Assembly (NCBI GenBank): GCA_900543625.1
Contig: UQSF01000001.1
Location: 79,916-143,915, forward strand
DNA length: 64,000 nucleotides
DNA from: an uncultured Eubacteriales bacterium
GTDB lineage: Bacteria; Bacillota; Clostridia; Oscillospirales; Oscillospiraceae
Direction: 5' to 3'
Below, in pieces: positions 3,753 through 63,672 of the stretch. The position numbers and the translations under genes are program-made. Every line of letters begins with the position of its first letter. The first letter of the stretch is position 1. Under the pieces are notes generated by a model that was not told the DNA's origin, did not search any database, and saw only the letters and a program-made list of their open reading frames with translations.

Positions 3753-3950
3753 AGACTGTCAAAAAGTATTACTTTTTGACACGGGGATTTGCGGCCTGAC
3801 TGCAGCGCACGCGCCGCTCGCCAAAAGCGAACGGCGCGCACGTTTGCAGGCCGAGCAGTATTTTCTCAGCCGCACATGTCGCCTGAGAAAATGATCGGAC
3901 TTTCTTTCGCCGCTGCGGCGGCGAAACTCTACGAGGTTTTTGACAAGCTG
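3753..3950 (+). repeat. copy 1 of ~200-bp hairpin-rich intergenic repeat family (TGTCAAAAAG-palindrome element)
   Basis: starts AGACTGTCAAAAAGTATTACTTTTTGACA, ends TTTTTGACAAGCTG; conserved internal hairpins shared with copies at 37703, 43256, 51801, 63475. Confidence 0.85.
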
Positions 3951-12559: not shown

Positions 12560-12635
12560 TGGTGCTCCAGCGGGGATTCGAACCCCGGACACCCTGCTTA
12601 AAAGGCAGGTGCTCTGCCTACTGAGCTACTGGGGC
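12560..12635 (-). tRNA. tRNA-Lys (anticodon TTT)
   Basis: 76-nt cloverleaf by eye; anticodon loop CTTTTAA; GGTTCGAATCC T-loop; CCA encoded. Confidence 0.9.
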
Positions 12636-12669
12636 ATATCGGTGTGAAAAGTTATCCGCTATCCAAAAT

Positions 12670-12760
12670 ATCAGACGCACCCAACAAATACTCAGACGCG
12701 AATCCAGCGAGAAATCCGCACCCAACAGATACTCAGACGCGAATCCAGCGAAGCGATTCG
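12670..12760. repeat. tandem direct repeat (2 copies of ~34 bp, period 41 bp) in the tRNA operon spacer
   Basis: GCACCCAACAAATACTCAGACGCGAATCCAGCGA at 12677 and GCACCCAACAGATACTCAGACGCGAATCCAGCGA at 12718. Confidence 0.6.
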
Positions 12761-12839
12761 CGGCTGAAGAAGGAGCTGGTGTTCGGAAACGGATGCTTTC
12801 TGCTTGCAGGAAGCAGGAGTTGGAAGAACATCAGCGACG

Positions 12840-12911
12840 TGGCTGGGATGGCGGGATTCGAACCCACGATATCAGAGTCAAAGTCTGGTGTGTTACCATT
12901 ACACTACATCC
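12840..12911 (-). tRNA. tRNA-Gln (anticodon TTG)
   Basis: 72 nt; acceptor TGGGATG/CATCCCA; anticodon loop CTTTGAC; CCA encoded. Confidence 0.85.
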
Positions 12912-12964
12912 CAATATCGGGGCAAAAATCATCGGGGATCGGGATCACTCCCAATCCCCGATTT

Positions 12965-13041
12965 CGTGGGGTGGGTAAAGGGGTTCGAACCCTCGACACC
13001 CGGAACCACAATCCGGTGCTCTCCCGACTGAGCTATACCCA
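12965..13041 (-). tRNA. tRNA-His (anticodon GTG) with encoded G-1
   Basis: extra 5' G pairing with discriminator C73; anticodon loop TTGTGGT; CCA encoded. Confidence 0.9.
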
Positions 13042-13053
13042 CCATAGGTCTGA

Positions 13054-13130
<77 letters not shown>

Positions 13131-13163
13131 GCGCATGCAATATTTGGCTGCCCGCCCAGAAGG

Positions 13164-13237
13164 TATGGAGCGGGTGATGGGAATCGAACCCACGTATCCA
13201 GCTTGGAAGGCTGGTGTTCTACCATTGAACTACACCC
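13164..13237 (-). tRNA. tRNA-Gly (anticodon TCC)
   Basis: 74 nt; acceptor GCGGGTG/CACCCGC; anticodon loop CTTCCAA; CCA encoded. Confidence 0.9.
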
Positions 13238-13264
13238 GCAGAGGTCGTCCCACAATCAGCTTTA

Positions 13265-21371: not shown

Positions 21372-21662
21372 TAGGGAGCGCCTGTGCGGAAACAGGTGCA
21401 TTCTGCGATGAAGCGGGAGATTGCGGAGCTGATCTCCGGTAACTTCCGTGGAGTATGTCCGCTGCCGCGCCTTTGCACGGCAGACAATCGGGCGGTTGAG
21501 TCAGCCAGCACCAGCGTATATCACCTGCACGGCTGCATACCGGCGAGAGCCGGTTTGTTTTTCGGGCAGGGTTTGATACGCACGGAACGGTGTATGGCGA
21601 TCTCATCCGTGCGAACCGGCGGAGCCAATGCCGCCCAAAAAATTCGTAACGGAGGAAACAAC

Positions 21663-23793: not shown

Positions 23794-24630
23794 ATGTCGA
23801 TTAAAACCTATAAACCCACCACGCCTTCCCGCAGACATATGTCCGTTTCCGGCTTCGACGGTGTCGACAAGCACGCCAAGCCGCAGAAGGAGCTCGTGGA
23901 GGTCCTCAAAAAGCACGCCGGCCGCAACAGCTACGGCCGCATCACCGTCCGCCATCAGGGCGGCGGCAACCGCAAAAAGTACCGCGTCATCGACTTCAAG
24001 CGCGACAAGATGGACGTCACCGCGACCGTCCTGCGCCTGGAGTACGATCCGAACCGCAGCGCGAACATCGCTCTGGTCGAGTACGCTGACGGCGAGCGCC
24101 GCTACATTCTGGCTCCTGTCGGCCTGAACGTGGGCGACGTGATCGTGTCCTCCGCCTCGGCGGATATCAAGCCGGGCAACGCCCTGCCGCTGGCCAACAT
24201 CCCGGTCGGCACCGTGATCCACAACATCGAGCTCTACCCGGGCAAGGGTGCGCAGCTGGTCCGCTCCGCGGGCGTCGCCGCGCAGCTCATGGCGAAGGAG
24301 AACGGTATGGCTACCGTCCGTCTTCCCTCCGGCGAGTACCGCAAGGTCCGCCTGACCTGCATCGCCTGCATCGGCCAGGTCGGCAACGTCGACCACGCCA
24401 ACATCTCCATCGGCAAGGCCGGCCGCAAACGCCACATGGGCGTTCGCCCGACCGTCCGCGGTTCCGTCATGAACCCGTGTGACCACCCGCACGGCGGCGG
24501 CGAAGGCAAATCGCCTGTCGGCCGTCCCGGCCCGGTCACCCCGTGGGGCAAGCCGGCGCTGGGTTACAAGACCCGTAAGAAGAAGAACGCGACCGACAAG
24601 TTCATTGTCAAGCGCCGCAACGCCAAGTAA
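23794..24630 (+). CDS. rplB: 50S ribosomal protein L2
   Basis: conserved sequence. Confidence 0.95.
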
Positions 24631-24644
24631 GGAGGGAATAGGTA

Positions 24645-24920
24645 ATGAGCAGAAGTGTTAAGAAAGGCCCGTTTGCCGCTCCCGAGCTGCTGAAGCGGGT
24701 CGATGAAATGAACAAGGCCGGCGAGAAGAAGGTTGTCAAGACCTGGAGCCGTTCCTCCACGATCTTCCCGTCCTTTGTCGGCCACACCATCGCTGTCCAT
24801 GACGGCCGCCGTCACGTCCCGGTCTATGTGACCGAGGATATGGTCGGACACAAGCTGGGCGAGTTTGCGCCCACGCGTACGTTCCGCGGCCACGCCGGCA
24901 GCAAGACTGTTGGAAAGTAA
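24645..24920 (+). CDS. rpsS: 30S ribosomal protein S19
   Basis: conserved sequence. Confidence 0.95.
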
Positions 24921-24932
24921 GGGGGAGAGAAC

Positions 24933-25280
24933 ATGGAAGAACTGAAAACTGCACGTGCCCAGCTGGTGCACGCCCGTATCGCTCCCCGTAAGGTCCAGAT
25001 CGTCTGCGACATGATCCGCGGCAAGGACACCAAGATCGCTGAGGCTTACATGGCCAACACGCCGAAGGCCGGCTGCGAGCTCATGCTCAAGCTGCTCAAG
25101 AGCGCTTGCGCCAACGCGGAGAACAACTTCGAGATGGATCCGGATAACCTCTATGTTGCCGAGGCCTATGCCACGGCCGGCCCGATCCTCAAGCGCGGCC
25201 GCCCGAGAGCTCAGGGCCGTATGTACCGCATCAACAAGCGCACCAGCCACATCACCATCGTCGTGGCTGAGAAGGCATAA
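24933..25280 (+). CDS. rplV: 50S ribosomal protein L22
   Basis: conserved sequence. Confidence 0.95.
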
Positions 25281-25297
25281 GGGAGGAGGCAGAAGAT

Positions 25298-26176
25298 ATG
25301 GGACAGAAAGTTAATCCGCACGGCCTGCGTGTCGGCGTCATCAAAGATTGGGATTCCCGCTGGTATGCCCGTGACGAGAAGGTCGGTGACCTGATCGTTG
25401 AGGACTACAAGATCCGTGAGTACCTGAAGAAGACTCTGTATTCTGCAGGCATCCCGAACATCGAGATCGAGCGCGACAGCGCGAAGGTTCGCATCTATAT
25501 CCACTGCTCTCGTCCGGGCGTTGTCATCGGCAAGGGCGGCGCGGAGATCGAGCGCATCCGCCTGAACGTTGAGAAGATGATCGGCAAGCCGGTCGCCCTC
25601 TCCATCGTTGAGGTCCGCACGCCGGATACGAACGCACAGCTCGTCGCCGAGAACATCGCCGCGCAGCTCGAGAAGCGCATCGGCTTCCGCCGCGCGATGA
25701 AAAACGCCATGGGCCGCGCCATGAGAATGGGCGCCCGCGGCATCAAGATCATGTGCTCCGGCCGTCTGGGCGGCGCCGAGATCGCCCGCACCGAGTGCTA
25801 TCACGAGGGTACCATTCCGCTGCAGACCATCCGCGCGGACATCGAGTACGGCTTTGCTGAGGCTGCCACGACCTACGGCCGTGTCGGCGTCAAGGTCTGG
25901 ATCTACAAAGGCGAGATCCTCTCCCAGAGCCTGCGCACCACCCCGCGCACCATGGATCTGAACAAGCGCGACGACCGTCGTCGTGACCGCCGTGACGGCG
26001 ATCGCAGAGGCCGCGGCGGCTACAACCGCGACCGTCGCGACGGCAACCGTCAGGGTGGCCGTCCGGGCTACCAGGGCGGCGGACGTCCGCAGGGCGGCAA
26101 CCGTCCGCAGGGCGGCTTCAACCGCGGCCCGCGTCCGGCAGCTCCCGCTGCTCCGAAGGAAGGAGGCAACAACTAA
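25298..26176 (+). CDS. rpsC: 30S ribosomal protein S3 with ~65-aa Arg/Gly/Asp-rich C-terminal extension
   Basis: KH and S3-C domains, then [44 protein letters not shown] tail. Confidence 0.95.
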
Positions 26177-26604
26177 TGCTGATGCCGAAAAGAGTGAAGT
26201 ACCGCAGAGTGCAGCGCGGTCGTATGACCGGCAAGGCCCTGCGCGGCAATAAGGTGACCTATGGCGATTTCGGCCTGCAGGCGCAGGAGCCGGCCTGGAT
26301 CACCTCCAACCAGATCGAGGCGGCCCGTGTCGCCATGACCCGTTACACCAAGCGCGGCGGTCAGGTCTGGATCAAGATCTTCCCCGACAAGCCGGTCACG
26401 CAGAAGCCGGCCGAGACCCGCATGGGTTCCGGTAAAGGTTCTCCTGAGTACTGGGTTGCCGTCGTGAAGCCCGGCAGAGTTCTGTTTGAGATTGCTGGCG
26501 TGTCGGAAGAGGCTGCCCGTGAGGCGCTGCGTCTGGCCAGCCACAAGCTTCCCTGCAAGACGAAGATCGTCAAGAAGGAAGAGACTGAGATTGGTGGTGA
26601 ATAA
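26176..26604 (+). CDS. rplP: 50S ribosomal protein L16
   Basis: conserved sequence. Confidence 0.95.
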
Positions 26605-26605
26605 G

Positions 26606-26800
26606 ATGAAAGCTAGTGAAATTCGCTCCATGTCCGCCGCTGAGCTGGAAAGCAAGCTGGTCGAACTGAAGAAGGACCTGTTCATGCTCCGTATGCAGCA
26701 CGCTACCAATCATCTTGACAACCCCGTTAAGATTTCTGCTGTGCGTCGCGACATTGCCCGAGTCAAAACCGTGCTCCGCGAAAAGCAGCTCGAGCAGTGA
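26606..26800 (+). CDS. rpmC: 50S ribosomal protein L29
   Basis: 64 aa starting [10 protein letters not shown], inside a longer track ORF. Confidence 0.9.
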
Positions 26801-26814
26801 GGAGGTAAGTGAGA

Positions 26815-27078
26815 ATGAACGAAATGAGAACGACTTCCCGCAAGACCCGCGTCGGCAAAGTGGTGTCCGACAAAATGGACAAGACCATCGTCGTCATCGT
26901 GGAGGACCACGTTGCGCACAAGGTTTATAAAAAGATCATCGGCCAGACCTATCGCCTGAAGGCACACGACGAGAACAACGAGTGCCATGTCGGTGATATC
27001 GTCCGCGTGATGGAGACCCGCCCCCTGTCCAAGGACAAGAGATGGCGCGTGGTCGAGATCGTTGAAAAGGCGAAGTAA
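26815..27078 (+). CDS. rpsQ: 30S ribosomal protein S17
   Basis: conserved sequence; ATG 26815 after GGAGG. Confidence 0.9.
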
Positions 27079-27090
27079 GGAGGCAACAAC

Positions 27091-27462
27091 ATGATTCAGC
27101 AGGAAAGTTATCTGAAGGTTGCCGACAATACCGGCGCCAAGGAAATCAAGTGCATCCGCGTTCTCGGCGGATCCAAGCGTAAATACGCCAGCATCGGCGA
27201 CGTGATCGTCGCTTCCGTGCGCAAGGCAGCTCCGGGCGGCTCCGTCAAGAAGGGCGACGTCGTCAAGGCTGTTGTTGTCCGCACCGCGAAGCCGGTCCGC
27301 CGCGCGGACGGCACCTATGTGCGTTTCGATGAGAACGCCGCCGTCCTGATCAACGGCGAGGATAAGAACCCCCGCGGCACCCGTATCTTTGGGCCCGTCG
27401 CCCGTGAGCTCCGCGACAGTGACTTCACGAAGATCCTGTCTCTGGCTCCCGAAGTTATTTGA
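27091..27462 (+). CDS. rplN: 50S ribosomal protein L14
   Basis: conserved sequence. Confidence 0.95.
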
Positions 27463-27476
27463 GGAGGGCGCAGAAC

Positions 27477-27782
27477 ATGAACATCAAAAAAGACGATAAA
27501 GTCGTTGTCCTGTCCGGTAAGAACAAGGGCAAGGAAGGCAAAGTCCTGTCTGCTGACCCGAAGGGCGGCAAGGTCATCGTGGAGGGCGTGAACGTCGCCA
27601 CGAAGCACCAGAAGCCGAAAAACCAGCAGGATCAGGGCGGCATCATCAAGACCGAAACCCCGATCTATGCCTGCAAGGTCATGGTCGTCTGCCCGAAGTG
27701 CGGCAAGCCGACCCGCGTTGCGCACAAGATCACGGACGGCAAGAAGGCCCGCATCTGCAAGAAGTGCGGCGCCGAACTGTAA
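27477..27782 (+). CDS. rplX: 50S ribosomal protein L24 (KOW) with C-terminal Cys4 zinc-ribbon
   Basis: [22 protein letters not shown] start; C-terminus CPKCG...CKKCG. Confidence 0.9.
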
Positions 27783-27800
27783 AGGAGGGAGCAACGAACT

Positions 27801-28355
27801 ATGGCAACAATGCCTTCTATGAAGAAGAAGTATGTGGAGGAAGTCGCTCCCGCTCTGATGACGAAGTTCCAGTACGAGAGCGTTATGCAGATCCCGAAGA
27901 TCGAGAAGATCGTCGTCAGCGTCGGCTGCGGCGACTGCAAGGATAACGCCAAGGCGCTCGACGCCGTCATCAAGGACATCACCGCGATCACCGGTCAGAA
28001 GGCCGTCGCGACCGTCGCCAAGAAGAGCGTCGCGAACTTCAAGCTGCGTGAGGGTATGCACGTCGGCGTGAAGGTCACGCTGCGTCAGGACCGTATGTGG
28101 GAGTTCCTGGACCGCCTGTTTAACATCGCGCTGCCCCGTGTCCGCGACTTCCGCGGCATTTCGGCCGACGCGTTTGACGGCCGCGGCAACTACAGCCTCG
28201 GCCTCAAGGAGCAGATCATCTTCCCCGAGATCGAGTACGATAAGATCGAGAAGCTCCGCGGCATGAATATCGCCATCATCACCACCGCCAAGACCGACGA
28301 GGAAGCACGCGAGCTGCTCAAGCTCATGGGCGCCCCGTTCGTCACCAAAGCATAA
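27801..28355 (+). CDS. rplE: 50S ribosomal protein L5
   Basis: conserved sequence. Confidence 0.95.
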
Positions 28356-28370
28356 GGGAGGAGCGACACA

Positions 28371-28556
28371 ATGGCTAAGAAATCTATGATCCTCAAGCAG
28401 CAGGCGCCTGCGAAGTTCTCCACCCGCCAGTACAACCGCTGCAAGATCTGCGGCCGTCCCCACGCTTACCTGCGCAACTACGGCATCTGCCGTATCTGCT
28501 TCCGTGAGCTGGCGTACAAGGGCCAGATCCCCGGCGTCCGCAAAGCCAGCTGGTAA
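28371..28556 (+). CDS. rpsN: 30S ribosomal protein S14, zinc-binding type Z (61 aa)
   Basis: CKICGR...CRICFR Cys4. Confidence 0.95.
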
Positions 28557-29075
28557 AATTCTGCCGTTTGGCATTGTGAGCTGTGCTTGCTGTATACCAG
28601 ATACAGCTGCGCACAGCGCCCTTCGCCAACCAAAAGAATTTCGCCCGGGGCGGGATAACGGCTGCGCGGTGCACACCGCCTGACGAAAAATGCTCGCCCA
28701 GCGCTGAACATTCCGTTCAGCCCTAACTTCCGTAAGTTCGCCCCTGCAGCCGCAGCTGGATCTGCGGCTGTCGGTGCGCACTGAAATACGGTGCCGGTGC
28801 TTATGATCTGAGTTCCGGTGCCGCACCCCACACTGCCTGTGCGTTTGACCCGGCGCGCAGGTATGCAGTCACCGCTTTTGTGCCGTCCGGCACCGCGGCC
28901 GTGCCGCTGCCATCCGGCGGCGACATGAAAATGGACCGCGCGTCACAAAAGCAAGCTTTTGCCCTTCGCTGAAAGGGCAGGGATGACGAAAGGCCGCAGG
29001 GAATCATGTATTCATGCGGAACCTCGCCGCCCAAACCGTATCATCGGTAACTTCTAACTAAGGAGGAAACAAACA
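28557..29075 (+). other. 519-bp non-coding, hairpin-rich insert inside the spc operon between rpsN and rpsH
   Basis: no credible ORF on either strand; multiple perfect hairpins (GCTGTGC..GCACAGC, GCTGAAC..GTTCAGC, CAGCCGCAG..CTGCGGCTG, AAAAGCAAGCTTTT, GCCCTTCGCTGAAAGGGC). Confidence 0.5.
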
Positions 29076-29474
29076 ATGCAGATCACCGATCCCATCGCCG
29101 ATATGCTGACCCGCATCCGCAACGCTGGCAGCGCTCGGCACGAAACCGTGGACATCCCGAATTCCAAGATGAAGAAGGCCATCGCCGAAATTCTTCTCGA
29201 GGAAGGCTACATCAAGAGCTTCCAGCTCATTGATGACGGCACGCAGGGCGTCATCCGCGTCACCCTGAAGTATCTCCCCGGCAAAGAGAAGGCCATCCAG
29301 GGCCTCCGCAGAGTCTCCAAGCCCGGCCTGCGTGTGTACGCCGGCGCTGACGAGCTGCCGCAGGTCCTGCGCGGCCTCGGCATCGCGATCATCTCCACCT
29401 CGAAGGGCATCATGACCGACAAGAAGGCGCGTGCGCAGCACGTCGGCGGCGAAGTCCTCGCGTTTGTGTGGTAA
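29076..29474 (+). CDS. rpsH: 30S ribosomal protein S8
   Basis: conserved sequence; AAGGAGG RBS. Confidence 0.95.
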
Positions 29475-29489
29475 GGGAGGTACAGAACG

Positions 29490-30029
29490 ATGTCTAGAAT
29501 TGGTAGAGCTCCCATCGAGATCCCCGCAGGTGTTGAAGTCGCCTGCAACGGCACGCTCGTCACCGTCAAGGGCCCGAAGGGCACCCTGACGCACAACGTG
29601 CACCCGGACATGACCGTCACGGTCGAAGGCAACACCATCCATGTCACCCGTCCGAGCGATGACAAACTGCACCGCTCTCTGCACGGCCTGACCCGCACGC
29701 TGATCCACAACATGGTCATCGGCGTGACCGAGGGCTTCAGCAAGACGCTGGAGATCAACGGTGTCGGCTACAGAGCCACAAAGGAAGGACAGAACCTTGT
29801 CATGCACCTGGGCTTCTCGCACACGATCACCATGTCCGAGAATGCGGACATCCAGATCGATGTTCCGAACCCGAACCAGGTCATCATCAAGGGTATCGAC
29901 AAGGAAAAGGTCGGCCAGTTTGCAGCAGAAGTGCGCGCCAAGCGTCCGCCCGAGCCGTACAAGGGCAAGGGCATCAAGTACGACTATGAGCACGTCCGCC
30001 GCAAAGAAGGCAAGACCGGCGCGAAGTAA
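29490..30029 (+). CDS. rplF: 50S ribosomal protein L6
   Basis: conserved sequence. Confidence 0.95.
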
Positions 30030-30045
30030 TTGGAGGTGTGCCTGA

Positions 30046-30405
30046 ATGATTAAGAGACCGAATACGAAAGCGCAGCGCGTTCGCCGTCACCAGAGAGTGC
30101 GCGGCAAGGTTTCCGGCACGGCCGAGAGACCGCGTTTGAGCGTGTTCCGCAGCGAAAACAACATTTATGCCCAGATCATCGACGATGTCGCCGGTAAGAC
30201 GCTCTGCAGCGCCTCCACCGTGGAAAAGGGCTTTGAAGGCAATGGCGGCAACTGCGAAGCGGCAGCCAAGATCGGCAAGCTCGTCGGCGAGCGCGCCGTG
30301 GCTGCCGGCATCACCGAGGTCGTGTTCGACCGCGGCGGCAACGTGTACCATGGCCGTGTCAAGGCTCTGGCAGAAGGCGCCCGTGAGGGCGGCCTGAAGT
30401 TCTAA
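30046..30405 (+). CDS. rplR: 50S ribosomal protein L18
   Basis: conserved sequence. Confidence 0.95.
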
Positions 30406-30422
30406 CGGGAGGAGGAAACGAA

Positions 30423-30953
30423 ATGGCATATAACAATGACAGACGGGACAATCGCCGCAACCGCAGCGATGAGCCCCAGGAATTCACCGAAAAAGTCGTT
30501 GCCCTCAACCGCGTTTCCAAGACCGTTAAGGGCGGCCGCGTCGCAAAGTTCTCCGCACTCGTCGTCGTGGGTGACGGCAAGGGCCGCGTGGGCTTCGGCC
30601 TCGGCAAAGCAGCCGAAGTCTCCGAAGCGATCCGCAAGGGCCTGGAGGACGCTAAGAAGAACCTGACCACCGTGACCCTGCAGGGCACGACGATCCCGCA
30701 CGAGGTCATCGGCGCGTTCGGTGCCGGCCGCGTGCTGCTCAAGCCCGCTGCTCCCGGTACCGGCGTGATCGCCGGCGGCGCTGTGCGTGCTGTGGTCGAG
30801 GCTGCCGGCATCAAGGACATCCGTACCAAGTGCCTGCGTTCGAACAACCCGGCAAACGTCGTCGCTGCGACGATGGAAGGTCTGAAATCTCTGCGCAACG
30901 CCCAGCAGGTCGCTGCTTACAGAGGCAAGACCGCCGAAGAGATTCTGGGTTAA
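30423..30953 (+). CDS. rpsE: 30S ribosomal protein S5
   Basis: conserved sequence. Confidence 0.95.
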
Positions 30954-30967
30954 GGAGGGGCTGAGAC

Positions 30968-31150
30968 ATGGCAAATCTGAAGATCAAGCTCGTCAAGAGC
31001 CTCAGCGGCCGCAATGTCAAGCACATTGCCACCGCCAACTCCCTCGGCCTGCACAAGATCGGCAACGAGACCGTGCAGCCCGATAACCCGCAGACCCGCG
31101 GCAAGATCGCCAAGATCGGCTATCTCGTCGCCGTCACCGAAGAAGAATAA
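30968..31150 (+). CDS. rpmD: 50S ribosomal protein L30
   Basis: conserved sequence. Confidence 0.9.
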
Positions 31151-31164
31151 GGAGGGCCCCAGAA

Positions 31165-31605
31165 ATGAATATCCACGAACTTTCTCCCGTTGTGGGCTCC
31201 ACCCATGTCGGCAAGCGCAAGGGCCGCGGCCACGCGACCGGCAACGGCAAGACCGCAGGCCGCGGTCATAAGGGTCAGAAGGCCCGCAGCGGCGGCGGCG
31301 TCCGCATCGGCTTCGAAGGCGGCCAGATGCCTCTGGCGCGCCGCATCCCGAAGCGCGGTTTCCACAACATCTTCGCCAAACCGCTCGAGAGCGTGAACGT
31401 CTCCGCTCTGGAGAAGTTTGAAGACGGCGCAGTCGTCGACGCGAAGGTTCTGCTTGACGCCGGTGTGCTGAGCAAGTGCACCTACGGCGTGAAGATTCTC
31501 GGCAACGGCGAAATCACCAAGAAGCTGACTGTGAAGGCTTCTGCGTTCTCCGAATCCGCGAAAGCGAAGATCGAGGCAGCAGGAGGAAAGGCAGAGGTGG
31601 TGTAA
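31165..31605 (+). CDS. rplO: 50S ribosomal protein L15
   Basis: conserved sequence. Confidence 0.95.
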
Positions 31606-31606
31606 G

Positions 31607-32905
31607 GTGCTCCAGACATTTCGTAACGCATGGCGGATCGAAGAGCTGCGCAAGAAAATTCTTTTCACGCTGCTGATTGTCCTGCTTTACCGTCTCGGCA
31701 ATGCCGTACCCGTACCTTTCGTCGATACCAAAGCGCTTGCGGAGTATTTCCAGTCAAGCGGCCTGCAGAACACGATCCTCGGACTGTTCAACGTTATGTC
31801 CGGCGGCGCGTTCTCTCAGGCAACGATCTTCGCGCTGTCCATCCAGCCGTACATCAACGCTTCCATCATCATTCAGCTCCTGTGCATCGCGATCCCCGCG
31901 CTGGAGCGTCTGCAGAAGGAAGGCGGCGAGGAAGGCAAGAAGAAGATCGCCAGCATCACCCGCTACAGCACGGTCGCCATCGGTCTGCTGCAGGGCTTTG
32001 CTTACTATATGATGATGCGCAACTACGGCCTCATGAACGCCGACTTTGCCGGCAACATCTGGGCTGCCATCGTCATCATCCTGACCTTTACGTCCGGTTC
32101 CGCCCTCATCATGTGGCTTGGTGAGCAGATCACCGAGTTCGGCATCGGCAACGGTATCTCGATCATCCTGTTCGTGAGCATCGTCGCCCGTTTCCCGAAC
32201 TCCATCATCCGCCAGATCAACAACGTCGCCAACGGCGACCTCGCCTGGTGGGTGCTGGTGCTGATGTACGTCGGCGCTCTGCTGCTGATCGTCATGATCG
32301 TGCTCGTCAACGATGCCGAGCGCCGTCTGCCGGTGCAGTACTCCAAGCGCGTCGTCGGCCGCAAGATGTACGGCGGCCAGAGCACGCACCTGCCGATGAA
32401 GGTGAACATGAGCGGCGTCCTGCCGATCATCTTTGCCCAGTCGATCGCGTCTCTGCCGGCCACCATCTGCGCCTTCGTTCCGAAGTGGCAGAGCAGCTGG
32501 ATCATGAAGCATGTCTTTGATACGACCACCTGGCCGTATATCGTCCTCTACTTCCTGCTCATCATCTTCTTCAGCTATTTCTACTCCACGATCCAGTTCA
32601 ACCCGATCGAGGTCGCGAACAACCTGAAGAAGAACGGCGGATTCATCCCGGGCTTCCGTGCAGGCAAGCCGACGAGCGAATTCATCCAGAAGGTGCTCAA
32701 CAAGATCACGCTCTTCGGCGCGATCTATCTGAGCGTCATCGCGATCACGCCGCTGATCATCAGTGCGTGCTCGCAGGCGGAGCAGCTCACCGGCATCTCC
32801 CTGGGCGGCACGTCCATCATCATCGTTGTCGGTGTTGCACTTGAGACCGTCCGCGCACTCGAGGCGCAGATGCTCATGCGCAACTATAAGGGTTTCCTGA
32901 GCTGA
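31607..32905 (+). CDS. secY: preprotein translocase subunit SecY
   Basis: 432 aa, 10 TM, conserved. Confidence 0.95.
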   Translation: MLQTFRNAWRIEELRKKILFTLLIVLLYRLGNAVPVPFVDTKALAEYFQSSGLQNTILGLFNVMSGGAFSQATIFALSIQPYINASIIIQLLCIAIPALERLQKEGGEEGKKKIASITRYSTVAIGLLQGFAYYMMMRNYGLMNADFAGNIWAAIVIILTFTSGSALIMWLGEQITEFGIGNGISIILFVSIVARFPNSIIRQINNVANGDLAWWVLVLMYVGALLLIVMIVLVNDAERRLPVQYSKRVVGRKMYGGQSTHLPMKVNMSGVLPIIFAQSIASLPATICAFVPKWQSSWIMKHVFDTTTWPYIVLYFLLIIFFSYFYSTIQFNPIEVANNLKKNGGFIPGFRAGKPTSEFIQKVLNKITLFGAIYLSVIAITPLIISACSQAEQLTGISLGGTSIIIVVGVALETVRALEAQMLMRNYKGFLS

Positions 32906-32921
32906 TAGGAGGATTCATAGT

Positions 32922-33557
32922 ATGAAACTCGTTTTGTTAGGTGCCCCCGGTGCAGGCAAGGGAACGCAGGCTGAGATCCTCAGCCGCAAGCTGAACATTC
33001 CCACCATTTCCACCGGCAACATCCTGCGTGCAGCCATGAAAAACGGCACGCCCGTGGGTCTGAAAGCAAAATCCTATGTGGAAAGCGGCAAGCTCGTTCC
33101 GGACGACGTCATCATCGGCATCGTCTGCGAGCGTCTGGCCGAGCCCGACTGTGCCAATGGTTATATCCTCGACGGCATGCCGCGCACCATCCCCCAGGCG
33201 GAAGCGCTGGAGCAGCACGGCATCGACGTCGACACCGCCCTCTCGATCGAGATCGCGGATGAGACCATCATCGAGCGCATGTCCGGCCGCCGGACCTGCA
33301 AGGACTGCAGCGCCACGTTCCACATCGTCTCCAACCCTCCCAAGGTGGAAGGCAAGTGCGACTTGTGCGGCGGCGAGCTGACCATCCGCAAGGATGACGC
33401 TCCCGAAACCGTCAAGGCGCGTCTGGATGTCTACCATGCCGAGACCGAGCCGCTCAAGGACTTCTACGCCCAGCGCGACAAGCTCGTCTCTGTGGACAAC
33501 CAGCCGACCATCGAGGCCACGACCGCTGCGATCGAGAAAGCTCTGGGTCTGGAATGA
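32922..33557 (+). CDS. adk: adenylate kinase (zinc-lid type)
   Basis: GAPGAGKGTQ P-loop; lid CxxC...CxxC. Confidence 0.95.
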   Translation: MKLVLLGAPGAGKGTQAEILSRKLNIPTISTGNILRAAMKNGTPVGLKAKSYVESGKLVPDDVIIGIVCERLAEPDCANGYILDGMPRTIPQAEALEQHGIDVDTALSIEIADETIIERMSGRRTCKDCSATFHIVSNPPKVEGKCDLCGGELTIRKDDAPETVKARLDVYHAETEPLKDFYAQRDKLVSVDNQPTIEATTAAIEKALGLE

Positions 33558-34309
33558 TCATCATCAAATCCGATCCTGAGATCGATATCATGCGGCAGGC
33601 CGGCCGGATCACCGCTGGCGCGCGTACCATCGCGCGTCAGATGGTGGCCCCGGGCGTGACTACCCGCCAGATCAACCGCGAAGTGCACAAGTTCATCACG
33701 AAGTCCGGCGCGACGCCGTGCTTCATGACCGACGGCGGCTTTCCGACGGCGGCGTGCATCTCCGTCAATGACGAGATCATCCATGGCATTCCAGGCGACC
33801 GCGTCCTGCATGAGGGCGATATCGTCAGTGTCGACGTCGGCGCCCGCTACCGCGGCTTCAACGGCGACTGTGCGGGCACGTTCCCGTGCGGCCAGTGCTC
33901 GGATGAGGCGCTGCGCCTGATCCGCATCACACGGCAGAGCTTTTTTGAGGGCATCCGGTTTGCCCGTGTCGGCTACCGCATCTCCGATATCGGCCACGCC
34001 ATTCAGGATTATGCCGAGAGCTATGGCTATTCACTCGTGCGCGAGTATGTCGGCCACGGCGTCGGCGCCGGCCTGCATGAAGCGCCGGAGATCCCGAACT
34101 ACGGCAAGCCCGGCCACGGCCCGCGTCTGCAGAAGAACATGACGATCGCCGTGGAGCCGATGGTCAACGCCGGAGACTACGAAGTCCGCGTTCTTGACAA
34201 CGGCTGGACCGTGGTCACGGCGGACGGCAGTCTGTCGGCGCACTACGAAAACTCTCTGCTCGTCACGGATGGCGAGCCGGAGATCCTGACGTTTGCAGAC
34301 GACATGTGA
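33554..34309 (+). CDS. map: type I methionine aminopeptidase
   Basis: conserved metal ligand pattern; ATGA overlap with adk. Confidence 0.9.
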
Positions 34310-43255: not shown

Positions 43256-43452
43256 CAGCTTGTCAAAAGCCTCGCAGAGTTTCGCCGCCGGAGCGGCGAA
43301 AGAAAGACCAATCATTTTCTTCGGCGACATGCGCGTCGAAGAAAATACTTCTCGGCCTGCAAACGTGCGCGCCGTCCGCCTTGAGCGGACGGCGCGTGCG
43401 ATGCAGTCAGGCCGCAAACCCCTTTGTCAAAAAGTAATACTTTTTGACAGTC
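43256..43452 (-). repeat. copy 3 of the ~200-bp repeat family (reverse orientation)
   Basis: shared internal hairpins; its TGTCAAAAAG end overlaps the TGA stop of the small membrane protein gene; no second flanking hairpin copy at this locus. Confidence 0.85.
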
Positions 43453-43705
43453 ACAGAAAAACGAAAAACAGCATCACGATCAGGTACGCGAACGCGAGCG
43501 TCATCGGCGCGAGTGCGAGTGCGGCGGTCAGCCGCCAGTCGTCCTCGCGCTCGACCGTGCCTTCATAGACCGGCTCCGCCATGGCGGCGAGTGAGCCGTG
43601 CAGATAGCTGCGGTAGAGCTTCAAAAACCGCTTTCCGTCGCGGCGGCCGGTGCTGTAGGCCGACTGCTCCGGTGTGCGGGGCTGCAGGGCGTGGTGTGTG
43701 CGCAT
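43451..43705 (-). CDS. small C-terminally membrane-anchored protein (84 aa)
   Basis: strong GAGGAGGAA RBS + ATG 43705; C-terminal TM LALAPMTLAFAYLIVMLFFVFL; immediately downstream of the PP2C gene. Confidence 0.55.
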   Translation of the reverse strand: MRTHHALQPRTPEQSAYSTGRRDGKRFLKLYRSYLHGSLAAMAEPVYEGTVEREDDWRLTAALALAPMTLAFAYLIVMLFFVFL

Positions 43706-51800: not shown

Positions 51801-51974
51801 CAGTTTACCAAAGAACCTCGTAGCCTTTCGCCGCCGCAGCGGCGAAAGAAAGTCCGATCATTTTCTTCGGCGACATGTGCGGCGAAGAAAATACCGCTCA
51901 GGCTGCAAGTGTGGAATTTGTGCGCGCAGCAGACTGCAATCCCTTTGTCAAAAAGTATTACTTTTTGACAGTCT
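51801..51974 (-). repeat. copy 4 of the repeat family (reverse orientation, shorter: lacks the central variable hairpin)
   Basis: flanked by hairpins AGAGAGCTTGTCACGAATCGTGACAAGCTCTCT (51765-51797) and AGAGAGCTTGTGACAAGCTCTCT (51977-51999). Confidence 0.8.
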
Positions 51975-52015
51975 CAAGAGAGCTTGTGACAAGCTCTCTT
52001 TTTTGCGCCCTGCGC

Positions 52016-63474: not shown

Positions 63475-63672
63475 AGACTGTCAAAAAGTAATACTTTTTG
63501 ACAAAGGAGTTTGCGGCCTGACTGCAGCGCACGCGCCGTCCGCCCAAGGCAGACGGCGCGCACGTTTGCAGGCCGAGAAGTATTTTCTTCGCCGCACATG
63601 TCGCCGAAGAAAATGATCGGACTTTCTTTCGCCGCTCCGGCGGCGAAACTCTACGAGGTTTTTGGACAAGCT
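63475..63672 (+). repeat. copy 5 of the ~200-bp repeat family, flanked by a perfect 35-bp duplication
   Basis: GAGACTGTCAAAAAGTAATACTTTTTGACA... ...GGTTTTTGGACAAGCTG. Confidence 0.85.

Follow-up and report, generated by a model that had tools for sequence, protein, structure and literature searches.

A composite spacer between rpsN and rpsH in an Oscillospiraceae spc operon holds a conserved candidate S8 operator and a recurrent hairpin module

The spacer between rpsN and rpsH

The window analyzed in this study is a stretch of 64,000 nucleotides (nt) of contig UQSF01000001.1 from an uncultured Oscillospiraceae bacterium. On its + strand lies an S10-spc ribosomal protein gene cluster, in which rpsN and rpsH, the genes for ribosomal proteins S14 and S8, are separated by the 519-nt spacer described here. 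The spacer is composite: a hairpin module and the relic of a second module copy at its 5' end are followed by a species-specific middle and by a conserved leader of rpsH. The genes and features are:

28371–28556, + strand: rpsN, Z-type S14 of 61 amino acids (open reading frame [ORF] and translation; Pfam Ribosomal_S14 on the identical gene in the same-species contigs L001–L010); upstream edge of the spacer
28559–28641, + strand: 5' hairpin module, a rod of ~83 nt (covariance model R2, covariation)
28658–28693, + strand: relic of a second module copy, from its 3' half, AACGGCTGCGCGGTGCACACCGCCTGACGAAAAATGC (match to the corresponding half, ...ACAGCTGCGCGCGGCGCACATCGCCTGACGAAAAATTGC, of the copy in L001, L003, and L004)
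28694–28976, + strand: species-specific run of hairpins with stems at 28703–28721, 28735–28782, 28789–28823, 28832–28869, 28870–28955, and 28961–28979 (minimum free energy [MFE] structure)
28977–29066, + strand: conserved rpsH leader, candidate S8 operator (covariance model R1, covariation)
29076–29474, + strand: rpsH, S8 of 132 amino acids (ORF; Pfam Ribosomal_S8 on the identical gene); proposed ligand and first regulated cistron

An earlier description of this locus, made from the letters alone and hereafter called the sequence-only reading, had reported a 519-nt gap between the S14 and S8 genes. The gap was confirmed, with rpsN ending at 28556 and rpsH starting at 29076. All other junctions read from the L14 to the L30 gene were 13–18 nt, versus 519 nt for this one, and rplF, rplR, rpsE, and rpmD come after rpsH at gaps of 14–17 nt. 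The same reading had considered the two genes as normally adjacent, which holds for Escherichia coli K-12 with a gap of 33 nt but not for the lineage of the window.

The species of the window is widespread in gut metagenomes; its exact S8 protein was found in over 16,000 assembly blocks, most of which came from human-gut samples. Ten contigs of the window's own species that encode this exact protein (L001–L010) were compared with 80 loci from a scan with one genome per species (L011–L090), almost all of which were labelled Oscillospiraceae or 'Clostridiales' and whose S8 was 80–92% identical to that of the window. The same-species spacers were 464, 465, 519, 595, or 603 nt long. In the 74 related-species genomes measured, the spacers all ranged from 104 to 1057 nt, with a dubious value of 2373 nt (L088) set aside. 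Thus, the long spacer is a trait of the lineage and not an accident of one genome. No sampled relative had lost it, and the shortest one (104 nt) retains the core of the rpsH leader. Comparison with relatives and an Rfam search were among the checks that the sequence-only reading had suggested. The former revealed a long spacer shared by relatives; the latter gave no Rfam 15 match within 28557–29075 at E ≤ 10 (24000–34000 were searched), nothing relevant to the spacer at the gathering threshold in the whole window, and nothing at this threshold in 20 related loci.

The whole spacer is non-coding RNA, and the claim that it holds no credible ORF stood. Its ORFs are at most 117 amino acids long and spread over all frames, and none of the six searched against Pfam had a match. 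A hidden gene, be it a small ORF or one in a different genetic code, could be sought in the stop-free runs of up to 117 codons found on both strands, but such runs are expected in all six frames at the 60% GC of the spacer, and those in the long spacers of relatives were also only as expected at high GC. Moreover, the strain indels of 55, 76, and 84 nt in the spacer ignore any reading frame, and no spacer ORF was conserved across species. Gene callers found nothing in the spacer in 9 of the 10 same-species loci; the single call, of 41 amino acids in L006, had no Pfam match. We consider a protein-coding spacer extremely improbable.

The MFE of the spacer was −218.6 kcal/mol, versus −190.3 ± 6.0 kcal/mol for its dinucleotide shuffles (z = −4.76; 0 of 100 shuffles equally stable). 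The z value of its minus strand was −2.93, and those of control coding 519-mers on either side were −0.65 and −0.68. At least seven hairpins with stems of at least 7 bp were found where at least five had been reported, and this richness is above chance. The segment 28578–28617, however, is not the Y-shaped hairpin that had been described but a coaxial arrangement of stem, internal loop, and stem within a longer rod (28557–28642). The strong AAGGAGG ribosome-binding site that had been noted upstream of rpsH was placed at 29060–29066. No promoter-like or terminator-like site was identified within the spacer in a scan of 27500–30000, and in a test for intrinsic terminators no spacer hairpin had a U run behind it. 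In the rest of the 64-kb window, pieces of the spacer had only chance matches of 12–20 nt.

A conserved leader immediately upstream of rpsH

When the ends of the spacers were aligned, a common block was found in nearly all species. It was represented by an alignment of 47 distinct leader sequences (A1) and by the covariance model R1. In the window, its elements are:

28984–28989 with 29024–29029, + strand: closing helix P1
A28990 A28991 G28992 G28993 (5' side) and A29020 A29021 C29022 C29023 (3' side), + strand: invariant internal loop
28994–28998 with 29015–29019, plus 29001–29004 with 29010–29013, + strand: helix P2
29035–29038 with 29045–29048, + strand: helix of the small hairpin P3
29047–29051, + strand: conserved linker GUAAC
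29051–29055, + strand: CUUCU, resembling an anti-Shine-Dalgarno sequence
29060–29066, + strand: Shine-Dalgarno (SD) sequence AAGGAGG

The helices vary in sequence while the internal loop is invariant. In A1, a linker of the form GUAAC-UCU-AAAU leads into the SD, and the SD and ATG of rpsH lie at most 45 nt past P1. For the 21 pairs of the leader, 91% of the alignment cells were paired and 14 pairs had double changes. The number of double-change cells was 142, versus 44 ± 5.5 in shuffles (0 of 500 reached 142) and 18–39 in controls with slid partners. RNAalifold independently identified compensatory changes in 11 of 15 leader pairs.

In the 64-kb window, R1 had one match only, at 28977–29065 (80.2 bits), and nothing was found near rplE. 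Among 85 sources, 81 had a single sense-strand match per locus, immediately 5' of rpsH. The four sources without a match were among the most distant ones and included Butyricicoccus and Intestinibacillus (L088–L090) as well as L082. In addition, R1 matched all 23 rpsN-rpsH loci, but none of 4 non-spc loci, from a separate metagenome scan. The first cistron after the leader was S8 itself in every case. The share of columns that vary within the species of the window was 2% in the leader core, compared to 4.0–7.4% in rplE, rpsN, rpsH, and rplF, 18% in the middle segment of the spacer, and 42% in the 5' module. By its position and its covariation the leader is a functional RNA, although these properties do not reveal its ligand. 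It had no match in Rfam 15 at E ≤ 10, and no description of it was found in the literature searched.

In two relatives, an insert of ~60–220 nt parts the leader core from the SD (L061, core at 2187–2275 and S8 at 2501; L063, 2342–2490), and this insert holds a palindrome of the type TGTCAAAAAGG...CTTTTTGG. The leader thus tolerates insertions between P1/P2 and P3, which bears on how it could act at the SD.

Likeness of the leader loop to the S8 site of 16S rRNA

In helix 21 of 16S rRNA, S8 is bound at a site where 5' A595-A596-G597-U598-C599 is opposite 3' G639-A640-U641-A642-C643-U644, with A642 and N641 bulged (PMC4176348). The site is defined by the invariant bulged A642, the variable position 641, and a (G597-C643)-U641 triple, while the 595-(596-644) triple differs by species, being A-(A-U) in E. 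coli and G-(C-G) in Thermus (PMC4176348). The internal loop of the leader, 5' GAAAGGCC opposite 3' GGAACCUC, resembles this site as well as the E. coli spc operator (AAGUC opposite GA[U/A]ACU). The motif UUAAGUC...GAUACUGG was confirmed in E. coli 16S genes, and in the E. coli spc operator GAAACUG (+6 to +12) is opposite CAAGUC (+79 to +84) (PMC3616713). Four classes of leader loops were distinguished:

Class A, ~52 members: 5' G-AA-AGG-CC, 3' GG-AA-CCU-C
Class B, ~10 members: 5' GAAAGGUC, 3' GAUACCUC
Class C, ~16 members: 5' AACAGGUC, 3' GAUACCUU
Class D, 2 members: 5' GGAAGUC, 3' GAUACCC

The two members of class D, in spacers of 125 nt (L076) and 104 nt (L085) that are among the shorter ones, have exactly AAGUC...GAUAC, the core shared with helix 21 of E. 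coli 16S rRNA. Classes A–C have AAGG[U/C]C opposite G[A/G][U/A]ACCU, that is, the letters of the helix 21 core plus one G-C pair; in an alternative register, they form an A-(G-C) triple together with an additional bulged A and an A-U closing pair. The presumed equivalent of A642 is A29021 in the window. The pair equivalent to 598/640 covaries, being C-G in 33 sequences and U-A in 14, and the bulged base beside it tracks the pair (A with C-G and U with U-A), except in L084, where U-A occurs with A. The likeness to the S8 site thus appears specific, yet short of identity. If S8 is the ligand, the natural leader variants with 1, 2, or 3 bp between the bulges would form a series for probing S8 recognition.

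The 5' hairpin module and its relic

The spacer of the window begins with the 5' hairpin module, for which z was −4.07. It is a rod of three helices:

AAUUCU/AGAAUU, + strand: outer A/U-rich helix
GCUGUGC (28580–28586) with GCACAGC (28611–28617), + strand: variable, covarying stem
CUGUAU (28590–28595) with AUACAG (28601–28606), + strand: conserved apical stem

Model R2, which was built solely from rpsN-rpsH copies, matched the window module with 77.7 bits on the + strand; on the − strand, the score was 17.8 bits with default filters and 25.6 bits with filters off. Its 27 + strand matches were all right behind the rpsN stop codon, in the window and in 20 other sources, several of which were strains of the window's own species. 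The module also opens the spacers of many other species, and it was present in 16 of the 70-odd related species of L011–L090 with a measured spacer. In the seed alignment of the module, double changes occurred in 24 of 30 pairs and in 113 cells, versus 42 cells in shuffles and 21–41 in slid controls.

The spacer lengths of the strains differ by gain or loss of a unit of ~84 nt directly after the rpsN stop codon, with one to three tandem copies. These tandem copies differ in a compensatory manner, such as GCUGUGC/GCACAGC versus GCCGCGC/GCGCGGC. The relic at 28658–28693 is deleted in strains L003 and L009. Its end, GCCTGACGAAAAAT, was the sole segment of the middle region with matches in other species by blastn and nhmmer. 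In L001, the apex is duplicated inside a second module copy (2490–2581; CTGTATAGAGCTGTATAGAAATACAG), which suggests slippage within the hairpin.

Because compensatory changes preserve the structure of the intact module, it is more than a decaying copy, and its maintenance across species argues against mere debris. The patchy presence of the module, its copy-number polymorphism, and its decaying copy, on the other hand, suggest that it is dispensable. Any function of the module would most likely be exerted by the RNA, as an accessory hairpin for stability, processing, or insulation; alternatively, the module may merely be tolerated.

Other lineages occupy the same spacer position with their own conserved pieces. 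Species with class C leaders (L062, L067, L075, L078, L080, L081, L083, and L087) have a conserved 5' element of their own, UUUCAUGGUAACUCGUCCAAAGGCGGGAG...CUCCCGCCUAUGGGCCUGUUAUA, which occupies ~110–130 nt at the start of the stretch before the core. It begins directly after rpsN in L062, L067, L075, L078, L081, and L087, and ~105–130 nt later in L080 and L083. In several class A species (L027, L030, and L040), a GGCGGGAG...CUCCCGCC hairpin precedes the core.

A wider hairpin family and its MITEs

Metagenomes were scanned with the apex pattern GGCTCGCAGTAY-N3-6-RTACAGCNTCGCC, by which at least 120 loci were identified. Among the matches listed, only 27 were rpsN-rpsH spacers and more than 90 were in other genomic contexts. 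The non-spc matches came from metagenomes of sediments, wetlands, and digesters, with many contigs of one metagenome among them. They are long hairpins that share the apex but have other, covarying stems. For 67 distinct copies of this hairpin family, 82.8% of the cells were paired and 264 cells had double changes, versus 92 in shuffles. A U-G pair was conserved in 54 and an A-A mismatch in 64 of the 67 copies. The motifs GC-UUCGU-U and GCCUY-GC, which lie outside the scanned apex, were also common to the family.

Flank alignments showed that three sequence groups are miniature inverted-repeat transposable elements (MITEs) of ~215–255 bp with terminal inverted repeats and 4-bp target duplications. 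The terminal repeats from these alignments are:

CCTGAATAATTCA / TGAATTATCCAGG
CCTGGACTATTCA / TGAATAATCCAGG
CCCGAATTTTGCA / TGCAAAATCCGGG

Besides CCCGAATTTTGCA, CCTGGAYTATTCA is a terminal repeat of hairpin-bearing MITEs. The target duplications are CTAG/CTAR or TTAA-like, the hairpin core adjoins the right end of the element, and the flanking genes are, by sequence, unrelated housekeeping genes. On the MITE hairpins R2 had full-length matches (1–82) of 35–66 bits, often several per contig. Thus, the homology of the hairpin and MITE cores extends beyond the pattern used for their retrieval. No full-length insertion sequence with the terminal repeats of the MITEs was found among the loci examined. 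MITEs of group 3 (e.g., L130:6890–7110) have an extra, terminator-like first hairpin, AAAACGCCG...CGGCGUUUUU. They often lie at CTAG between convergent genes, and sometimes they overlap with the stop codon of the gene upstream.

In Firmicutes-like contigs, solo hairpins are found just downstream of genes and on the sense strand, following aldolase-like, transaldolase-like, and prfC-like ORFs. Several single loci are of interest. In L103 (421–702), three solo hairpins are arranged as direct tandem copies behind the prfC-like ORF. L104, a contig of 7953 nt of digester type, has six hairpin copies in 8 kb, an extreme density of hairpin-bearing MITEs, some of which are nested or adjacent. In the Firmicutes-like contig L128, rplC (L3-L4-L23) is preceded at a distance of ~250 nt by a full-length module copy (206–289, 66 bits), which is a second case of the hairpin inside a ribosomal-protein operon.

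The hairpin family matched no known family. Rfam searches returned nothing relevant for 15 of its loci at the gathering threshold and nothing for a MITE copy at E ≤ 10, there was no match to plasmids or viral contigs, and a literature search on the apex sequence returned only unrelated primers and no named family. Several identities were also considered and rejected. In an integron attC, the conserved boxes are expected at the base, while here they are at the apex. For REP/RAYT elements, the conserved part should be the stem, and no GTAG motif was seen by eye. A group II intron domain V, a LexA box, and an intrinsic terminator fit poorly.

Taken together, the window module would appear to be a locus-fixed member of a mobile hairpin family that is inherited with compensatory changes and expands and contracts in tandem. 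Some results weigh against this. R2 identified no second module copy in the 64-kb window even with filters off, and the window module is a bare hairpin right after the rpsN stop codon, with neither terminal inverted repeats nor a target-site duplication; its mobile origin is therefore deduced from its relatives. The strand signal in the stems of the module is also weak (95 G-U versus 72 A-C). The module nevertheless links an RNA structure inside an operon to a widespread, MITE-borne family, and offers a lead on how essential operons may come to retain mobile hairpins as fixed parts.

The middle of the spacer and a repeat elsewhere in the window

The segment 28643–28976 had z values of −4.09 on the + strand and −1.91 on the − strand. 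No relatives of its main part, 28694–28976, were found in the spacers of other species by blastn and nhmmer, and no copy was found elsewhere in the window. Within the species, 18% of its columns vary, and the changes are not consistently compensatory. These ~280 nt are best regarded as lineage-specific, GC-rich filler hairpins.

The spacer had been described as unlike a TGTCAAAAAG repeat of the window, and this was correct. The repeat is a perfect palindrome, TGTCAAAAAGTA(A/T)TACTTTTTGACA, that is unrelated to the spacer and occurs in four copies, at 3757–3796, 43425–43464, 51946–51985, and 63479–63518. It sits in a longer repeat, of which the flank GGGGATTTGCGGCCTGACTGCAGCGCACG or its reverse complement is found at three copies and a diverged form at 51946.

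Proposed S8 autoregulation and alternative explanations

In E. coli, S8 is the repressor of the spc operon (PMC3616713; PMC10931766), which is the longest ribosomal-protein operon (PMC10931766). The structure of its operator is described as confined to Gammaproteobacteria (PMC3616713), and Firmicutes lack this operator. Given that the regulation of spc in Bacillus subtilis and other species was reported as unknown in a 2024 review (PMC10931766) and that a 2020 catalogue of ribosomal-protein leaders does not mention rpsH, uS8, or bS8 (PMC7247131), an S8 operator in front of rpsH is proposed here. On the grounds of its position and loop, the leader at 28977–29066 is probably autoregulatory and bound by S8.

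The spacer would be transcribed as a non-coding intercistronic region in three layers. Excess free S8 would bind the internal loop of the leader, a mimic of the helix 21 site, and bound S8 would lower initiation at rpsH, either by stabilizing a structure in which the standby site or the SD is inaccessible or through steric hindrance. P3 puts the SD within ~15 nt of the base of P1, and the MFE fold includes a weak CUUCU/AGGAG mini-hairpin (29051–29065) that could sequester the SD. The long structured spacer would uncouple rpsH from the translation of rpsN, so that rpsH would initiate alone on its strong SD and control would begin at rpsH and not at rplE as in E. coli. The downstream cistrons rplF, rplR, rpsE, rpmD, and those beyond would follow via translational coupling. 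If S8 binds, the same protein's rRNA site would have been imitated anew at a different cistron and with a different RNA. The leader is thus a concrete, testable candidate for spc control outside Gammaproteobacteria, and it is conserved among the sampled Oscillospiraceae-like bacteria, most of which came from animal guts.

Several points weigh against S8 as the ligand. The assignment would rest on position and resemblance, and the resemblance was judged against helix 21 and the spc operator of E. coli, the host 16S rRNA lying outside the window. The major loop classes differ from helix 21 by an extra G-C pair, or by an extra bulged A and an A-U pair, and the spacing from the 5' A bulge to the 3' bulge differs among the classes, unlike in strict geometric mimicry. 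The loop is 35–70 nt upstream of the SD, so that direct steric occlusion is not obvious, and no convincing alternative-pairing switch was found in the leader. A pseudoknot between the P2 apical loop and the rpsH start (AUGCA) was rejected, because the loop varies (CAUGU, CAAGC, CGCGU, and others) while the start region is constant, without covariation. Moreover, the leader core alone is not unusually stable (z = −1.35), and S8 binding does not account for the conserved GUAAC linker or for the P2 apex (CAAUC-NNG-YAUUG). Given that position and covariation indicate a functional RNA but not its ligand, the leader could instead be a cis-acting element of rpsH that binds another protein (L6, L18, S5, or others), an RNase processing site, or a translation-enhancing standby structure that would let rpsH initiate independently after the long spacer. 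Such an element would readily accommodate the departure of the loop from the canonical core, its distance from the SD, and the linker and apex that have no counterpart in the S8 site. However, the nucleotides that do not vary coincide exactly with the S8 core, AAG(G)[U/C]C with G[A/G][U/A]AC(C)U, with two shorter versions letter-perfect as AAGUC/GAUAC; S8 is the only spc-encoded protein known as an mRNA repressor; and the cistron next to the element is always that of S8. We therefore regard a ligand or role other than S8 binding as possible but doubtful.

For the spacer as a whole, none of the three alternatives of the sequence-only reading covers all 519 nt. The idea of a regulatory leader fits the last ~90 nt (28977–29066), which are conserved, covarying, found only before rpsH, and provided with a loop like the S8 site, but not the remainder. 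That of a decayed insertion fits the first ~140 nt, which hold an intact and a decayed copy of a hairpin with relatives in MITEs, although simple decay does not describe the intact copy. That of an independent stable non-coding RNA found no support: the scan identified neither a promoter-like nor a terminator-like site in the spacer. It could also be argued that the entire spacer is the neutral debris of old insertions and that its hairpins are GC-rich palindromic junk, as the middle 280 nt have no relatives and vary in 18% of columns without consistent compensation, and as the module belongs to a family that is MITE-borne elsewhere and varies in copy number by strain. For the leader core, this is refuted by conservation and compensatory changes: the core is maintained despite S8 proteins only 78–92% identical and is the least variable segment within the species. 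In addition, the module retains 24 of 30 pairs via double changes across species, and the spacer is never lost in the sampled relatives, with a 104-nt minimum that includes the core. Neutral debris as the explanation of all 519 nt is thus most unlikely. Little more probable, and still unlikely, is that the 5' module is the key novelty, a portable RNA or single-stranded DNA element for a cellular or transposon-encoded factor (e.g., a site of RNase III-type processing or a hairpin bound by a transposase) that sets the expression of the two halves of the operon. Its apex and internal loops are conserved in sequence in unrelated contexts (U-G in 54 and A-A in 64 of 67 copies), its structure is kept through compensatory changes, and every Firmicutes-like solo copy comes shortly after a gene and in its sense orientation (rpsN-rpsH, upstream of rplC, and three other genes). 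This is to be set against its presence in only 16 of 70-odd related species, a copy number that is polymorphic within the species and a decaying copy, as for a dispensable element, and the lack of a known partner protein or cleavage and of any Rfam or literature match. A more ambitious synthesis, which we hold only tentatively and would not expect to prove right, is that the ~83-nt hairpin is an undescribed, widely distributed module, recognized by its apex GGCUCG-CAGUAY...RUACAG-CUUCGCC, U-G pair, A-A mismatch, and pyrimidine-rich internal loops; that it is cargo of various MITEs and has been domesticated by Firmicutes in sense-strand operons, which would imply a conserved partner such as a nuclease, a transposase, or a ribosome-associated factor; and that the rpsH leader is the first S8 operator outside Gammaproteobacteria. 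The explanation that we prefer, with a chance somewhat better than even, combines an S8-operator leader, a fixed hairpin module, and a lineage-specific middle.

Comparison with known systems

Similar to the E. coli spc S8 operator at the start of rplE, the candidate leader is an mRNA structure in the spc operon with a conserved asymmetric loop resembling helix 21, with two bulged A residues on one strand and AAG-UC on the other, a variable distal stem, and the S8 of the operon itself as presumed ligand. Different from the E. coli operator, which overlaps the start of rplE, the leader of the window is a dedicated element of ~90 nt directly 5' of rpsH. Its strand polarity is that of the rRNA site, with the AAG strand 5', while that of the E. 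coli operator is reversed. Most members also have an extra G-C pair or A bulge, and the P2 apex, P3, and the GUAAC linker are additional. There is no sequence homology between the two. Thus, with its location upstream of rpsH, its opposite strand order, and no R1 match near rplE, the leader is not an spc operator of the E. coli type.

The leader is of the same class as the ribosomal-protein leaders of Firmicutes and Clostridia, such as the S10-Clostridia leader (RF03136), the L10 leader (RF00557), and the S4-Clostridia leader, in that it is a covarying structure upstream of a ribosomal protein gene in one lineage (PMC7247131). Unlike these, it is internal to an operon and not at the 5' end of a transcript, and it has no counterpart in Rfam 15. 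The window contains the following Rfam matches at the gathering threshold:

11–137, − strand: L10 leader
12563–13239, − strand: cluster of five tRNAs
21400–21487, + strand: S10-Clostridia leader, before the S10 operon

Known ribosomal-protein leaders and the new candidate thus coexist in one gene cluster.

Intercistronic repeat hairpins and MITEs of the REP/BIME, ERIC, and Correia/NEMIS types are the nearest counterparts of the 5' module. Similar to them, the module is an imperfect palindrome of ~83 nt between cistrons, with a variable number of tandem copies and multi-copy relatives. Different from the REP type, its apex and internal loops, and not its stem, are most conserved, and it is common to very different bacteria. 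Unlike dispersed repeats, the window module occupies a single locus and is without terminal repeats. As for the leader, this candidate would be an RNA of a known kind, an autoregulatory mimic of rRNA, in a new place and built from a new RNA.

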